Below, piece after piece: positions 47,565 to 57,180 of a stretch of 64,000 nucleotides of DNA (position 1 is its first letter; every line of letters starts with the position of its first letter). The DNA comes from Pseudanabaenales cyanobacterium. GTDB taxonomy: Bacteria > Cyanobacteriota > Cyanobacteriia > Pseudanabaenales > Pseudanabaenaceae. The notes under the pieces are model-generated. The model saw nothing but the letters and a program-made list of their open reading frames with translations. It did not search any database and had not been told where the DNA came from. The stretch covers positions 3,999 through 67,998 of the forward strand of contig JBBQRB010000001.1 in assembly GCA_038215315.1 (NCBI GenBank), in the 5' to 3' direction. The translations under genes and the position numbers were made by a program.

Positions 47565-50500
47565 ATGAATAAGTCTACTCTTGTTACTCCTGCCTTCGTT
47601 CTACCAGATCTTGTAGAAATCCAGCGGGAGAGTTTTCGATGGTTCCTAGAAGAAGGACTTATTGAAGAGCTTGAGAGTTTCTCGCCGATTACAGATTATA
47701 CGGGCAAGATGGAACTCCATTTTATTGCCAAAGACTACAAGCTCAAGCGTCCTAAATATAGTGTTGATGATTCCAAGCGTCGGGATGCAACTTACGCCGT
47801 ACAGATGTACGTTCCCACCAGATTAATCAATAAAGAAACGGGAGAAATCAAGGAGCAAGAAGTATTCATCGGCGATCTGCCTTTGATGACAGACCGTGGA
47901 ACCTTTATTATTAACGGGGCAGAACGAGTAATTGTCAACCAAATTGTTCGTAGCCCTGGTGTATATTACAAGCAAGAAATTGATAAAAACGGTCGCCGAA
48001 CCTACAATGCCAGCTTGATTCCTAACCGAGGAGCTTGGTTGAAGTTTGAAACTGATAAAAATGATTTAGTTTGGGTGCGTATTGACAAAACCCGCAAACT
48101 TTCCGCTCAGGTACTACTCAAGGCAATTGGTTTAAGCGATGCCGAAATTTTGGACGCACTTACCCACCGTGAGTATTTCCAAAAGACCATCGACAAAGAG
48201 GGTCAGTTCGACGAAGATGAAGCGCTAAAAGAGCTATACCGCAAGTTGAGACCAGGAGAGCCGCCTACTGAATCTGGTGGTCGTGAACTGTTGCGATCAC
48301 GCTTTTTCGACCCAAAGCGTTATGACTTGGGTAAGGTTGGTCGGTATAAGCTTAACAAGAAGCTACGTTTAAATACTCCTGACACCATGAGGGTATTAAC
48401 GGAGAAAGATATTCTTACTGCCATCAATTACCTGATCAATCTCAAATTTGATATTGGTGAAATTGACGATATTGATCACTTAGGTAATCGTCGCGTCCGT
48501 TCTGTTGGTGAACTGCTACAGAATCAAGTTCGAGTCGGTTTAAACCGACTCGAAAGAATCATCCGTGAAAGAATGACTGTCTCTGACGTTGATTCACTCA
48601 CACCTGCATCTCTAGTTAATCCAAAGCCTTTAGTTGCCGCAATCAAAGAATTCTTTGGCTCCAGTCAACTATCTCAGTTTATGGATCAAACAAATCCTCT
48701 TGCTGAACTTACGCACAAACGTCGGCTTAGCGCTCTAGGTCCTGGCGGTTTAACTCGTGAACGCGCAGGGTTTGCGGTGCGTGATATCCACCCGAGCCAC
48801 TATGGTCGGATCTGCCCTATTGAAACACCAGAAGGTCCAAACGCAGGCTTAATTGGTTCCCTCGCCACTCATGCACGTGTCAACCAATATGGTTTTATCG
48901 AGACTCCATATTATGCAGTTGAGAACGGTAAAGTTCTAAAAAACCAAGAGCCGATTTACATGACTGCTGACGAGGAAGATGAATTCCGCGTTGCACCTGG
49001 AGACGTTGCTACTAATGACGAAGGATATATCTTTAGCGAAATTGTACCAATTCGTTATCGTCAAGAATGGGGTACTGCAACACCAGAGGAAATCGACTAT
49101 GTAGCCGTTTCTCCTGTGCAGATCATCTCTGTCGCAACATCATTAATTCCTTTTCTAGAACATGACGATGCCAACCGCGCCCTAATGGGGTCGAATATGC
49201 AACGTCAAGCAGTTCCTCTTCTTCGTCCTGAGCGCCCCTTAGTTGGTACTGGCTTAGAAGCGCAAGCGGCTAGAGACTCAGGGATGGTGATTGTTTCGAG
49301 AGTCACAGGCGATGTTTCCTACGTGTCTGCTGACGAAATTCGCGTCAAGGCTGATGATACTGGTCTAGAAAGCATCTATCGTCTGCAAAAATATCAGCGC
49401 TCGAACCAAGATACTTGCTTGAACCAACGTCCCTTGGTATGGGTCGGCGATAGTGTAGTTGCGGGACAAGTACTAGCTGACGGGTCTGCTACTGAAGGCG
49501 GCGAAATTGCTCTTGGTCAAAACATTCTCGTAGCCTATATGCCTTGGGAAGGCTACAACTACGAAGACGCAATTTTGATTAATGAGCGACTAGTAATTGA
49601 CGATGTTTACACCTCGATTCACGTTGAAAAATATGAAATTGAGGCTCGTCAGACGAAGTTAGGTCCTGAAGAAATTACCCGCGAGATTCCTAACGTTGGT
49701 GAGGACTCACTCCGCAATCTAGATGAGCAGGGAATTATTCGGATTGGTGCTTGGGTTAGTTCTGGTGAGATCCTTGTTGGTAAAGTCACGCCCAAAGGTG
49801 AATCTGATCAGCCGCCCGAAGAAAAGCTATTGAGAGCAATCTTCGGAGAAAAAGCTAGAGATGTCAGAGATAACTCCTTGCGAGTTCCTAATGGTGAAAA
49901 AGGTCGTGTAGTTGATGTACGAGTATTTACTCGTGAACAAGGCGACGAGTTACCCCCTGGGGCAAACATGGTTGTCCGTGTCTATGTTGCCCAGAAACGG
50001 AAGATTCAAGTTGGCGACAAAATGGCAGGTCGTCACGGTAATAAGGGAATCATTTCGCGAATTCTACCTAAGGAAGATATGCCCTTTCTACCTGACGGAA
50101 CTCCACTTGACATCGTACTCAATCCTCTCGGTGTGCCATCACGGATGAATGTAGGTCAAGTTTTTGAGTGCCTTTTAGGTTGGGCTGCGGAAAACTTGAA
50201 TGCTCGCTTCAAAATCGTACCTTTCGATGAAATGTATGGAGAAGAGGCTTCCAGAGAGTTAGTACATGGTCAACTTGAACACGCTCGTAGCCATACTGGA
50301 AAAGATTGGATCTTTAACGACGCATTTCCTGGCAAGCTAACTGTCTATGACGGTCGGACGGGTGAACCGTTTGATCAACCTGTGACTGTTGGTAAGGCGT
50401 ATATGCTGAAACTTGTTCACCTAGTTGATGACAAAATTCATGCTCGCTCAACAGGACCTTATTCTCTAGTCACACAGCAGCCTCTGGGTGGTAAAGCCCA

Positions 50501-50867
50501 ACAAGGTGGTCAGCGTTTTGGAGAAATGGAGGTGTGGGCTTTGGAGGCATTTGGTGCTGCCTATATTCTTCAAGAGCTACTCACTGTTAAGTCTGATGAT
50601 ATGACTGGCCGGAATGAAGCTCTGAATGCGATCGTCAAGGGTCATGCCATTCCGCGACCTGGTACTCCAGAATCATTCAAAGTACTAGTGCGTGAGCTTC
50701 AGTCTCTATGTCTAGATGTTTCAGTACATAAGCTTTCTGACGATGGTAGCAATCAAGATACTGAGGTGGATTTAATGGTAGATGCTGGCTCCCGCCGCAC
50801 CCCAAATCGTCCTACTTACGAATCCGCCTATAGAGGTGACATCAACTTTGATGAGGATGATGACTAA
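47565..50867 (+). CDS. rpoB: RNA polymerase beta subunit
   Basis: [18 protein letters not shown]; [12 protein letters not shown]; [14 protein letters not shown]. Confidence 0.99.
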
Positions 50868-51059: not shown

Positions 51060-53096
51060 ATGGCGAAAGTGGAACAGCGATTTGACTATGTCAAGATTGG
51101 CTTAGCATCACCTGATCGCATTCGTAAGTGGGGCGAACGGGTTTTGCCTAACGGTAGCTTGGTTGGTGAGGTTACTAAGCCTGAGACGATTAACTACCGC
51201 ACCCTCAAACCAGAAATGGATGGGTTATTTTGCGAAAGAATATTCGGTCCTGCTAAGGACTGGGAATGTCATTGCGGTAAATATAAACGAGTACGGCATC
51301 GTGGTATCGTTTGCGAACGGTGTGGCGTAGAAGTAACTGAATCACGGGTGCGTCGTCACCGTATGGGCTTCATTAAATTGGCAGCCTCGGTTACCCATGT
51401 TTGGTATCTCAAGGGTATTCCTAGCTACATGGCAACCTTGCTAGATATGCCCCTGCGTGATGTAGAACAGATAGTTTATTTTAACGCTTATGTCGTCATT
51501 AACCCTGGTCTCCGATCAGAGGTAGATGGTGTAATTGTATCGGTCAATAGCCGTGAGATCCGCATACGGGGTGTTGATGGCGTTGAGACAGCCTACTATC
51601 TTCACCCCAAGCATGTTTCTACAGTTGTTGAAGGTAAGACAGTAGAGACGGGTGAGGTAATTGCTGGAGCTTATGGTTTGTCTTATAAGCAACTGCTTAC
51701 TGAAGATCAATGGATTGATTTAGAAGACCAAATTTATGCTGAAGATCCTGTGTTGGAAGGCATTGAAGTTGGCATTGGTGCGGAGGCAATTAAGCAGTTA
51801 CTGCAAAATATCAATCTTGAAAAAGAAGCAGAACGGCTTCGCACTGATATTGGGAACTCTAAAGGGCAGAAACGAGCCAAGCTAATCAAGCGCCTACGTG
51901 TAGTTGATAACTTTGTAGCGACTGGCTCTAAGCCAGATTGGATGGTTTTAGACGTTATTCCTGTTATTCCTCCTGATTTACGTCCAATGGTGCAACTTGA
52001 TGGCGGTCGATTCGCTACTAGCGATCTGAATGATCTTTACCGTCGTGTGATCAACCGAAATAATCGTCTTGCGCGCTTGCAAGAAATTCTGGCACCTGAA
52101 ATTATTGTCCGTAATGAAAAGCGGATGTTACAGGAAGCCGTAGATGCCCTAATTGATAATGGTCGTCGTGGACGCACTGTAGTTGGAGCGAATAATCGTC
52201 CTCTTAAGTCTCTTTCTGACATTATTGAAGGGAAACAAGGGCGTTTTCGTCAGAACTTGCTTGGTAAGCGTGTTGACTACTCAGGTCGTTCAGTGATCGT
52301 GGTAGGACCGAATCTCAAGATTCACCAGTGCGGTTTGCCTAAGGAAATGGCTATAGAGCTATTTCAGCCCTTTGTGATTCATCGCCTAATTAAGACGGGC
52401 TTGGTAAACAATATCAAGGCAGCTAAGAAATTAATTCAGCGTAATGATCCATCTGTATGGGATGTGCTAGAAGATGTAATCCGCGAGCATCCTGTAATGT
52501 TAAATCGCGCTCCGACGCTTCACCGTTTAGGTATCCAAGCTTTTGAGCCTTTATTAGTTAGCGGTCGTGCGATTCAACTGCACCCTCTTGTTTGTCCAGC
52601 TTTCAATGCTGACTTTGATGGTGACCAAATGGCAGTTCACGTTCCTCTGTCTATTGAGGCTCAAGCTGAAGCAAGAATGTTGATGCTTGCGTCCAATAAC
52701 ATTCTCTCGCCAGCTACTGGTCGTCCGATTGTGACTCCCAGTCAAGACATGGTTTTGGGCTGTTACTATCTCACCACCGAAAATCCTTATAAGCAGAAGG
52801 GAGTAGGTCGATATTTTGCCAACTTTAACGATGTAGTTATGGCCTACGAACAGGCCGAGTTAGATATTCACGCGAATATCTGGGTGCGCTTTGAAGGTGT
52901 GGTTGAAGGACAAGGTGAAGAGAGGGACGATGAAGAACCAAAGCTTACTGTTTTAGAGGATGGCTCAAGAGTTAAAGAATTCTCCTTCCGTCGTATTCGA
53001 GAAGATGCTGAAGGAGAGTTAATTTCTCAATACATCAAGACAACTCCGGGAAGAGTAATTTTTAATCAAGCAATCTACGCTTCCTTAGTTAGTTAG
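51060..53096 (+). CDS. rpoC1: RNA polymerase gamma subunit, with a 53-aa insertion
   Basis: Zn finger CHCGKYK…CERC; NADFDGD catalytic motif. Confidence 0.99.
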
Positions 53097-53202
53097 CCCA
53101 GTTTCCTCCTCTCTTAATTCATCGAAGGATACCTATTTCTCTTAGTTGAGAAATAGGTATCAAAGCCAATTATTTAAAAGATTATCTAGTAGCTTATATA
53201 CC

Positions 53203-56200
53203 ATGGCAAATTTCACGACTAGCAGCACGGATTCGCCTGAAGACAAAAAGCCTCAGCGTTTTATCAACCGTACAATTGATAAAGGGCAGCTTAAAAAATT
53301 AATTGCATGGGCTTTTACTAACTATGGAACCACCAGCGCTGCGATCGTTGCCGATCAACTTAAAGCATTGGGTTTTCGTTATGCAACGCAGGCTGGTATT
53401 TCTATCAGTATTGATGATTTACAGGTTCCTGCTACTAAGAAAGCGTTGTTAGCTGCTGCGGAGCTGGAACTTGAAGAAACAGAGAGTCGCTATACCAGAG
53501 GTGAGATTACTGAAGTAGAGCGTTTTCAAAAGGTTATCGATACTTGGAACGTTACTAACGAGAACCTCAAGGACGAGGTGGTCAAGAACTTTCAGAACAA
53601 CAATCCTCTTAACTCTGTATATATGATGGCGTTCTCTGGTGCGCGTGGCAATATGTCGCAGGTGCGTCAGTTGGTAGGTATGCGCGGCTTGATGGCTGAT
53701 CCTCAAGGGGAAATCATAGATTTACCGATTAAGACAAATTTCCGTGAAGGGCTGACAGTTACGGAGTACATTATTTCTTCTTACGGTGCGCGTAAGGGGT
53801 TAGTTGACACCGCGCTACGGACAGCCGACTCTGGATACCTCACTCGCCGTCTAGTTGATGTGTCGCAGGATGTGATTGTCCGTGAGAATGATTGCGGTAC
53901 AACTCGTGGTATTCGTTTAAGAGCAATGCGTGATGGGGAAAAGACGCTTATCAAGTTGTCTGATCGTCTTTTTGGTAGGGTCGCGGCTGAAGATATTGTC
54001 GACCCCAGAACGGGTGAAGTAATCGTCATGCGTAACCAAGAGATATCCGAAGAACTCTCCTTGACTGTTCAAAAGGCTGGTGTCGAAGAAGTCTGTGTTC
54101 GCTCTGCTTTTACCTGTGAATCAACTCGCTCAGTTTGTCAGATGTGCTATGGCTGGAGTCTTGCCCATGCTGAATTGGTGAACATTGGTGAGGCTGTCGG
54201 CATCATTGCTGCTCAGTCAATCGGCGAGCCAGGCACGCAGTTGACTATGCGTACTTTCCACACGGGTGGTGTAGTTACTGGGGAAGTTGCTGAACAGCAA
54301 CGCGCTCCCTATGGAGGTACTGTCAAGTACAGCAAAAAGCTGAAAGTTCGCCCGATGCGTACTCGTCATGGGGAAGATGCATTCATTATTGAGTCTAACG
54401 GTGACTTTACGCTAGAAAGTGCTGAAGGTAAACGCTCTTATACTGTTACACAAGGTTCGACTTTATTAGTTAGTGATGGACAAAAGGTAACTCACAATCA
54501 GCTAATGGCAGAGGTCTCTGTCACAGGTAAAACTTCTCGTAAGACAACAGAAAAAGCAACTAAGGCTTTAAATACTGGTTTGGCTGGCGAAGTTTTATTT
54601 TCTGATCTGGCGATCGAGGAGAAAAAAGACCGTCAAGGTAATACTAGCTATGTGGCTCGTGGTGAAAAAGGTAGGGTTTGGGTCTTATCTGGTGAGGTTT
54701 ATAACTTACCTCCTGGTGCTGAACCAACGGTTAAAAATGAGGCTTCTGTGCAAGAGGGTGACGTACTTGCTGAAACTCGTTTGATTACTGAGCATGGCGG
54801 TGTTGTCCGTCTCAGTGAAGAAGACAGTCGCCACAATCGCGAGGTTGAGATTATTACGGCTTCTGTGGTTTTAGATCAGGCGATCGTTAAGGAGGAAAGT
54901 TACCAAGGTCGCGAGCATTATGTGCTTGAAACTCAGGGCGGTCAGAATTTCTCTTTGAAGGCTTCTCCAGGTACAAAATTAATTAACAATCAAGTTGTTG
55001 CGGAATTAATTGATGATACTTATCAGACTAAGAGTGGTGGCATTATTAAGTTTGCAGGCGTAGAGGTTGCTAAGCGCAGTAAGGGCAAGCAGGGTTATGA
55101 AGTCGTCAAGGGCGGCACTTTGCTCTGGGTTCCTGAAGAAACCCATGAAGTTAACAAAGATGCTTCTTTGTTGATGGTGGAGGAGAATCAGTTTATTGAG
55201 GCTGGTACGGAAGTTGTTAAGGACATCTTCAGCCAAACTGCGGGAGTAGTGGAAGTATTTCAAAAGAATGATATTCTTCGTGAAATCGTGATTAAACCAG
55301 GTGATTTACATTTGGTTGACGATCCTCAAACGGCGATGCAGAAGAATGGCTCTTTAGCTTATCCTGGTACAGAAATCATGCCAGGGTTGACTTCTCCTGA
55401 GTTGAGATATGTTGAATATCTTGATTCTACTGAAGGTCCAGCACTATTGTTGCGTCCTGTAGAAGAGTACCAAGTACCTGATGTGCCAACAGTTCCTAGC
55501 CAAGAGTCGGTCAATCAGGAAGGTCGCTCTATTGGTTTGCGGGCTGTGCAACGGATTCCTTACAAGGATGGCGATCGCGTGAAAGCGATCGATAGTGTTG
55601 AACTTCTGAAAACTCAACTGCTTTTGGAGGTTGATACTGACGCACCACAATTGGCTGCTGACATTGAATTCATCCCCAATGAACAAGATCCTGGTAGCTT
55701 ACGTTTACAGTTGGTAATTTTAGAATCTCTAGTGATTCGCCAAGATAATTCTGGCGATCCTGCTCATAGCAATTCTCGGACAAGATTACTTGTCAATGAT
55801 GGCGATCGCATCGATCCAAGTGCTGTGGTAGCTAGAACAGAGATTCTTTGCAAAAAAGCAGGACAGGTGCGTGGTATCCGTCAAGGCTCCGAAGTAGTTC
55901 GACGCTTGTTGATAGTTACTGATACTGATTGCATCACTACAGATTGCCCGAATCCCACTGTCAAGGCTGGCGATTTGCTAAGTGCTGGTGATCAGATTGG
56001 TGAAGGTGCTATTACTCGAGAGTCTGGGCAGGTTTTGAAGATTGATAACGGTCAAGCGATCATCCGCACTGGTCGTCCTTATCTCATATCCCCTGGTGCA
56101 TTGTTGCAAATCCATGATGCTGACCTAGTACAGAGAGGTGACAACATCGCTTTGTTAGTGTTTGAACGCGCCAAGACGGGAGACATTATCCAAGGTTTAC

Positions 56201-57180
56201 CTCGAATCGAAGAGCTTTTAGAAGCCCGTAAGCCCAAGGAGATGTGTGTATTATCACGGACATCTGGTACTGCTCAAGTGACCTACGATGCTGACGATAA
56301 TCCCGAAGTTAAGATTATTGGTGATGATGGTGTAGTGGATGATGACTATTCGTTCAACGCTGGACAGAGTGTGATTATCTCTGATGGTCAAAAGGTTTCG
56401 GCTGGTGAAGCTATTACTGATGGACCTGCTAATCCCCATGACATTCTGGACATCTACTTCCAAGCCTATAAAGAATCCGTTGGTGTAAAGAAAGCAGCTT
56501 TAATTGGTTTACAGAAGGTTCAAGAGTTCTTGATGAATGAAGTTCAATCTGTCTATCAATCTCAGGGTGTGGATATTTCCGACAAGCATATTGAGGTAAT
56601 TGTTAAGCAAATGACCTCAAAGGTTCGTATCGAAGATGGTGGGGATACTACCCGTCTTCCTGGTGAGCTAGTCGAACTACATCAAGTTGAGCAGATTAAT
56701 GAAGCGATGGAAATCACTGGTGGTGCGCCTGCTGACTACACGCCTGTATTGATGGGCATCACTAAGGCAAGTTTGAACACGGATAGCTTTATCTCGGCAG
56801 CTAGTTTCCAAGAGACAACTCGTGTACTCACTGAAGCAGCGATTGAAGGTAAGTCCGATTGGTTACGCGGCTTGAAGGAGAACGTAATTATCGGTCGTTT
56901 GATTCCTGCGGGTACTGGCTTTAATGCTTACGATACGCCGATTGTGGAAGTGGATAATGGCTACGAGCCTGATCTTGGCTATGACGAAAAAGCGGATGAT
57001 GTGATCATTGATGATAATACGGCGCGGAACTATCAAATTATTGAGCCGCGCGTTGAACCTATTCGGGTGATCGATAAGCCTCGGAGCCGTCGTAGTTTTG
57101 ATGATGAGCTAGTTGATGATGATGTGGAATTTGAAGATGACGATCTTGATGATGATGATGACTTCGATGATGAAGAATAA
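53203..57180 (+). CDS. rpoC2: RNA polymerase beta' (delta) subunit
   Basis: [16 protein letters not shown]; [13 protein letters not shown]; large cyanobacterial SI3; start ATG 53203. Confidence 0.98.

Follow-up and report, generated by a model that had tools for sequence, protein, structure and literature searches.

A predicted sandwich-barrel hybrid domain inserted at the clamp-toe of the RNA polymerase gamma subunit in Pseudanabaena and its nearest genera

Few enzymes are as conserved as RNA polymerase, and lineage-specific inserts in its subunits mark regulatory divergence. The cyanobacterial enzyme is already unusual, with a split beta' subunit and the giant insertion Si3. We analysed a stretch of 64,000 nucleotides (the window) from a Pseudanabaenales cyanobacterium (GCA_038215315.1, contig JBBQRB010000001.1, positions 3,999 to 67,998 of the forward strand), in which the gene rpoC1 encodes a gamma subunit with an additional segment. 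What is this segment, where did it come from, and what might it do? We found that it is very probably a genuine, translated, lineage-specific in-frame domain insertion, consisting of one compact sandwich-barrel hybrid motif (SBHM) of ~52 aa in the loop at the tip of the clamp-toe (E. coli beta' 150-154). The account of identity, origin and mechanism given here is, taken as a whole, the best explanation of the locus, and we hold it with good, somewhat lower confidence.

A preliminary description of the locus had stated that cyanobacterial gamma subunits have about 625 aa, with only a few residues at this site. This agrees with the solved subunits from Synechococcus elongatus (8syi, 624 aa), 8h3v (625 aa) and Synechocystis (8gzg, 626 aa), all of which have a 4-residue loop there. 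Comparison of RpoC1 with these sequences from the PDB by phmmer gave two aligned blocks, 1-155 and 204/207-677, and residues ~151-205 have no counterpart in the three proteins. Outside the insert, RpoC1 is ~80-90% identical to the solved cyanobacterial gamma subunits. Translation of window positions 51450-51730 (plus strand) returned the residues described earlier, located between ...YVVINPG and [12 protein letters not shown]. In the alignment, the stretch between N-P-G and L-S-Y-K-Q comprises 56 residues (151-206) in carriers and a 4-residue N-x-x-(N/D/E) loop in the aligned non-carriers; its exact limits are uncertain by a few residues. The in-frame insert and the protein length of 678 aa were therefore described correctly, whereas the size of 53 aa has to be corrected to a net gain of 52 aa, as 56 residues replace four. 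Every carrier examined has the same insert length, which argues against chance or an assembly artefact as the cause.

The insert is confined to a part of one family. In GTDB, the order holding Pseudanabaena consists of the single family Pseudanabaenaceae. We obtained matches for 46 of 47 Pseudanabaena genomes, all 46 with the insert (in G078 a contig end cuts it), among them P. cinerea FACHB-1277, P. frigida ULC066bin1 and Pseudanabaena sp. BL-A-41. Five further genera of the family are carriers (g20, g21, g22, g26 and g28; nine genomes) and six are not (g18, g19, g23, g24, g25 and g27; 11 genomes). Besides these, one incompletely covered genome was left unscored and three incomplete genomes gave no match. 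The insert is thus found in 6 of the 12 genera, a restricted and phylogenetically coherent distribution, and it has been seen at identical length in more than 50 independent genomes, including complete ones. Of 401 genomes sampled evenly across the class, 352 from other families than Pseudanabaenaceae gave a match; in each case this match was split at the site, which means that all 352 lack the insert. A further sample of 16 other families agrees. Hence, the segment is not a feature of most cyanobacterial RpoC1 proteins, and its lineage-specific nature, as initially proposed, is borne out.

Searches of larger protein collections gave the same picture. A word-indexed search returned only 15 clusters of RpoC1, with 69-98% identity within the insert. 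Using the insert profile, we found no close family of the insert outside Pseudanabaenaceae among 1.84 billion representative proteins, a collection in which Pseudanabaena proteins are hidden through 50% clustering with RpoC1 lacking the insert. The 16 weak matches of this search (E 3e-10 to 8e-4) were beta' C-terminal fragments, M23 peptidases and SLH-domain repeat proteins. A description of the insert was not found in the searchable literature, which excluded the catalogue of RNA polymerase inserts by Lane & Darst (2010).

The segment is present in RNA libraries, and its protein sequence is under purifying selection. The insert region is covered by contigs from four RNA-seq libraries of freshwater origin; one of 2269 nt spans window positions 51381-52000 without a gap, and another of 151 nt lies wholly inside the insert. 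The pooled ratio of nonsynonymous to synonymous substitution (dN/dS, Nei-Gojobori method, 39 distinct Pseudanabaena coding sequences, synonymous divergence near saturation) was 0.108 for the insert, compared with 0.007-0.019 for its flanks and 0.015 for the rest of rpoC1. The GC content is 0.48 in the insert and 0.45 in the gene, and at third codon positions (GC3) the values are 0.37 and 0.38; this match indicates that the composition is not foreign. Both the RNA-library contigs and the dN/dS of the insert speak against splicing, which had been named as a way in which the initial proposal could fail.

The preliminary description had also proposed the SBHM pattern, and modelling supports this. 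AlphaFold2, run without templates on an alignment of 19 diverse inserts, predicted an all-beta domain of five or six strands with a mean predicted local distance difference test score (pLDDT) of 85.9 for the insert alone. When gamma residues 1-343 were modelled, the insert was the best-predicted part (~90) and had the same strands, at residues 157-162, 166-171, 176-180, 185-187 and 200-204. The top 50 Foldseek matches in the PDB were the beta-subunit SBHM of many bacteria, with template modelling (TM) scores of 0.81-0.88, a root-mean-square deviation of ~1 A and 22-29% identity. An all-against-representatives comparison with VIA-align ranked beta 578-652 of the plastid RNA polymerase (PEP) first (Z 9.8), followed by the cytochrome f small domain (9.5) and Xanthomonas beta (8.6). 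Lower matches were BCCP, EIIA, NusG domain II, the S. elongatus SI3 tail (8h02, 7.6), E. coli SI3 (2auk, 7.3), Taq beta'i2 (2auj, Z 6.1, 32% identity) and M23 peptidases, all of them barrel-sandwich hybrids. As modelled, the insert superposes on known SBHMs and is itself a predicted SBHM. The Pfam families found with the insert alone stayed below their cut-offs and all belong to hybrid-motif families (Biotin_lipoyl_2 17.4 bits, Peptidase_M23 16.7, RPOC_hybrid 14.3). A turn of the sequence L-H-P-K (L34, H35, P36 and K37 of the 19-insert alignment) joins the two halves of the motif. This turn and several surface positions are invariant, although the inserts of the carriers are only 43-59% identical.

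We also considered a biotinyl/lipoyl carrier domain and rejected it. The hairpin-tip motif of the M-K-M type is absent, the only invariant lysine is that of L-H-P-K, and the lysine of E-G-K is replaced by pairs such as N-Q or G-D in other carriers. In RpoC2, the C-terminal SBHM (residues 1043-1094, window 56272-56427) has a sub-threshold Pfam match to Apocytochr_F_C (E 1.2e-5), which agrees with the similarity of the insert to the cytochrome f small domain and reflects a common fold, not a common function.

Where does the domain sit in the enzyme? Its two flanks align with residues 96-150 and 154-241 of E. coli beta' and with residues 86-137 and 250-317 of M. tuberculosis beta', which bracket beta'i1. 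Judged from these alignments, the site is the clamp-toe, at E. coli beta' 150-154, the insertion point of actinobacterial beta'i1. According to the literature, beta'i1 and the Deinococcus-Thermus beta'i2 are inserted at exactly the same point, on the tip of the clamp where the cleft opens (PMC5511352); our own mapping covered E. coli and M. tuberculosis, and the identity of the two sites is taken from that work. Describing the Thermus SBHM insertion as merely nearby was therefore an understatement. The clamp-toe comprises E. coli beta' 144-179, is bound by Crl and is known as a hotspot for lineage-specific inserts (bioRxiv 10.1101/726851). It contacts sigma region 1.2 and the sigma non-conserved region (NCR) in the closed complex, affecting promoter escape and early pausing (PMC7822876), and it binds PAP11 in the plastid polymerase (PMC11561172).

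The comparison with the other occupants of this site is instructive. Thermus beta'i2 (Taq beta' ~158-452; 2auj) has the same insertion point, is likewise built of SBHMs and is matched in its repeats by both the profile and the model of the insert. It comprises 283 residues in five interlocked SBHMs and reportedly takes part in the binding of sigma A (PMC5511352), whereas we found a single minimal SBHM of 52 aa, which by its distribution was acquired independently inside one cyanobacterial family. Actinobacterial beta'i1 (M. tuberculosis and M. smegmatis beta' ~140-230) is also lineage-specific, shares the insertion point and protrudes from the tip of the clamp where the cleft begins. However, its ~90 aa form a coiled coil of two helices across the cleft, while the insert is predicted to be an all-beta globular SBHM too small to reach across. 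That unrelated bacteria add domains at the clamp-toe is known; the SBHM of Pseudanabaenaceae is a new example and a third, independent and minimal occupant of this hotspot after beta'i1 and beta'i2. The coordinates are collected in Table 1.

Table 1. Features of the rpoB-rpoC1-rpoC2 locus, with positions in the window
Feature	Position	Strand	Remarks
rpoC1, RNA polymerase gamma subunit (N-terminal part of beta')	51060-53096	+	678 aa; open reading frame and Pfam RNA_pol_Rpb1_1/2/3
Inserted domain, RpoC1 residues 151-206	51510-51677	+	carrier/non-carrier alignment; predicted single SBHM
L-H-P-K turn, RpoC1 residues 181-184	51600-51611	+	invariant in 19/19 diverse carriers aligned
rpoB, beta subunit	47565-50867	+	1100 aa; open reading frame and Pfam RNA_pol_Rpb2 domains
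RpoB SBHM, residues 576-638	49290-49478	+	closest relative of the insert in the genome; profile matches
rpoC2, beta'2 subunit with SI3 insertion	53146-57180	+	1344 aa; Pfam; SBHMs are weaker relatives of the insert

Length variation at this site is not limited to the SBHM. The three genomes of genus g23 (L070-L072) have an unrelated insertion of 12 aa, of the P-A-L-K-S-I-L-P-N-E-S-S type, directly after the ancestral N-x-x-D loop, which indicates that the site is an indel hotspot even inside the family. Additional residues (+10 or +5) within the 141-aa segment around the clamp-toe were seen in L148 (UBA2566), L170 (Hormoscilla) and L184 (Hydrococcus).

The closest relatives of the insert by sequence are SBHMs of RNA polymerase itself. 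When a hidden Markov model (HMM) of the insert was searched against the six-frame translation of the genome, the only significant second match was RpoB 576-638 (E 6.7e-5, 24.5 bits); the C-terminal SBHM of RpoC2 reached E 0.1. By hhalign, the same RpoB segment was aligned with 96.5% probability (E 8.8e-10, 35% identity), and four SBHMs of RpoC2 (residues 953-1002, 1035-1090, 385-455 and 518-542) with 70-90%. The scores were 64.9 for RpoB and 38.9-46.8 for RpoC2, compared with at most 22.8 for column-shuffled profile controls. The resemblance to RpoB and to the SI3 repeats of RpoC2, which had been noticed from the letters alone, could thus be recovered by profile comparison, with that to RpoC2 being the weaker one. 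Among the PDB sequences, the HMM matched at E <1e-3 only RNA polymerase SBHMs (E 2.6e-8 to 1e-4; Thermus beta'i2 among them), Thermotoga NusG domain II and one ribosomal L24.

The RpoB SBHM is the best match in structure (TM 0.83-0.88, Z 9.8) as well as the best profile match in the genome, and it is encoded in the same operon, ~2 kb upstream of the insert; in E. coli beta, the corresponding region precedes the flap. The two domains differ in a 10-residue, strictly conserved Q-R-S-N-Q... loop, which is buried in the core of beta; hhalign places a 10-residue gap there, and L-H-P-K occupies this position in the insert. The cyanobacterial Si3 (beta'i6) in RpoC2 and SI3 of E. coli are likewise SBHMs inserted in the large RNA polymerase subunit as lineage-specific surface modules, and the Si3 repeats share with the insert the half-motif Y-x-L-x-P-...-G-x-x-V-x-x-G-x-x-(I/L)-A. 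In contrast to the insert in the clamp-toe of gamma, Si3 lies within the beta'2 trigger loop and moves during catalysis, and its profile scores are below those for the beta SBHM. The most likely source of the insert, although at somewhat less than an even chance, is another SBHM of RNA polymerase that was copied, that of the beta subunit being the nearest candidate. Such a copy would have lost the conserved buried loop of beta and gained the invariant L-H-P-K turn in its place.

To trace when the insert was acquired, we relied on a tree of concatenated RpoB, RpoC1 and RpoC2 (3019 columns, insert masked), in preference to a tree of RpoC1 only, which was poorly resolved and scattered the carriers among non-carriers with the insert masked. 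The concatenated tree placed g1, g20, g21, g26 and g28 in one clade with 100% support, comprising 11 of the 13 carrier rows and five of the six carrier genera. Forcing all carriers into one clade was not rejected by the approximately unbiased (AU) test (p = 0.124), and the non-carriers within the family keep the N-x-x-(N/D/E) loop of the outgroup type. For these two reasons a single gain within Pseudanabaenaceae is favoured, and the data are compatible with one origin. As to how the insertion took place, no flanking repeats that could explain an insertion or deletion were found, the single finding being a weak internal repeat. This imperfect 20-nt direct repeat (window 51518-51537 and 51644-51663, 70% identity) encodes both E-x-(D)G-x-(V/I)-I half-motifs; it reflects the internal pseudo-symmetry of the hybrid motif, and a recent duplication is unlikely.

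Several points weigh against our reading and have to be set beside the alternatives. The fold is predicted, not solved. Kinship with the polymerase SBHMs was detected only by profile methods, as pairwise BLASTP of the insert against RpoB and RpoC2 of the window gave nothing significant, and the Y-x-L-x-P turn of the insert is closer to beta'-type SBHMs (SI3, beta'i2) than to the beta SBHM, which keeps the latter a candidate donor. The RNA evidence consists of contigs from poly-A metatranscriptome libraries, where DNA contamination is possible. An artefact of assembly or annotation, or removal of the segment as an intein or intron before the mature protein is formed, is nevertheless practically negligible as an explanation. 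A contig from one RNA library (run X14, window 51427-51683) is 156 nt (52 codons) shorter at this site, with 255 nt swapped for 99 other letters between matching flanks; given the mismatches in these flanks and the 99 different letters, it most likely stems from a co-occurring cyanobacterium without the insert and not from splicing. The other RNA-library contigs run through the insert without a gap, more than 50 independent genomes agree in its length, and selection acts on the protein sequence. Moreover, the 52 aa, predicted to fold as an SBHM, start with L/I and end with A-Y-(N/G), having neither a Cys/Ser/Thr nucleophile nor a terminal His-Asn, so that an intein was rejected. Descent from the Deinococcus-Thermus beta'i2, as a remnant or a horizontally acquired piece, is very unlikely. 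The shared insertion point, the matches of the insert profile to several SBHM stretches of Thermus beta'i2 and the structural alignment with 2auj would fit such a history, but the single profile stretches reach no more than 5-7 bits each, the better match in both structure and profile is the beta SBHM, and the GC and GC3 values are those of the host gene. Absence from all other cyanobacteria sampled excludes vertical descent, and an orthologous beta'i2 would be expected to have ~283 aa and five SBHMs, not one. A further point is that carrier genus g22 stands at the base of the family on the free concatenated tree (support 87). Together with the interspersed carriers on the RpoC1-only tree, this would suit an insert ancestral to all Pseudanabaenaceae and precisely deleted one to three times. 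We regard this as rather unlikely, since repeated deletions would need to re-create the 4-residue loop exactly, the stem of g22 is long (0.3) and monophyly of the carriers was not rejected; the single gain remains the favoured history.

The insert would lie off the catalytic core and enlarge a platform on the enzyme surface, next to sigma domain 2 and where the DNA cleft opens. The same platform contacts the sigma NCR, Crl or PAP11 in other bacteria, or bears beta'i1 or beta'i2. By analogy, the insert may affect the stability of the holoenzyme or open complex or promoter escape, or it may offer a docking surface for sigma, the Si3 head or a lineage-specific factor. Added surface beside sigma domain 2, tuning the holoenzyme and open complex or providing a docking site, is our leading suggestion for the mechanism, although a tentative one. 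The preliminary description had likewise suggested altered interactions with sigma or other factors; this we infer from the site, for which the literature provides support through the binding of the sigma NCR and Crl to the clamp-toe. The literature also describes docking of the Si3 head on sigma A domain 2 in open complexes of cyanobacteria. A more specific version, in which a beta SBHM transplanted to the clamp-toe newly touches sigma A domain 2 or the Si3 head docked there, is unlikely. If true, the cyanobacterial Si3-sigma arch over the -10 region would be reinforced or regulated in a way specific to Pseudanabaena, and open-complex stability or promoter escape would thereby change in this lineage. 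A complex prediction of the insert with SigA residues 75-255 gave a score of 0.00, that is no answer, and is evidence neither way. SigA was located via Sigma70_r1_2, while Sigma70_ner and Sigma70_r1_1 of Pfam had no match in this 88%-complete genome.

The other possibility is a neutral passenger, i.e. an SBHM inserted by chance in a permissive surface loop and kept because its removal or unfolding is mildly harmful, with no specific partner or role. This alternative remains strong, and we consider it quite possible, short of an even chance. Six sister genera and all other cyanobacteria sampled manage without the insert, and its dN/dS exceeds that of the remaining gene ~7-fold, which is what one would expect of a domain that is peripheral and perhaps dispensable. 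The site also tolerates unrelated inserts, as beta'i1, beta'i2, the 12-aa insertion of g23 and the small length variants elsewhere demonstrate, and any contact or functional effect of the SBHM is drawn from comparable systems. On the other hand, the insert does not vary in length at all, several surface positions and the L-H-P-K turn are the same in the carriers despite the overall divergence, and a dN/dS well under 1 has been held over saturated synonymous divergence. Comparable elements at this site, namely beta'i2 and the clamp-toe itself, have documented roles.

Whatever its role, the domain has practical consequences. Sister genera with and without it offer a natural comparison for the effect of a clamp-toe addition on sigma binding, open-complex stability and promoter escape. 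Moreover, the insert is an unambiguous indel marker for the clade of Pseudanabaena sensu stricto and its nearest genera. The gene rpoC1 is widely used as a cyanobacterial barcode and as a reference in quantitative PCR. Hence, a length difference of 156 nt in rpoC1 matters for the design of primers and amplicons.

The genes of the operon follow each other in the order rpoB-rpoC1-rpoC2, all on the plus strand, and all three were confirmed by Pfam. The longest open reading frame of rpoC2 begins at a TTG codon, 50 nt past the rpoC1 stop (window 53146). Elsewhere in the family, RpoC1 reaches 742 aa in g28 (L064, L065) and 704 aa in g18 (L075). There, the extra ~65-77 aa are located in an acidic variable loop near the C-terminus (alignment columns 628-725; window ~52890-53000). 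These C-terminal insertions form a second, independent set of gamma length variants within the family.

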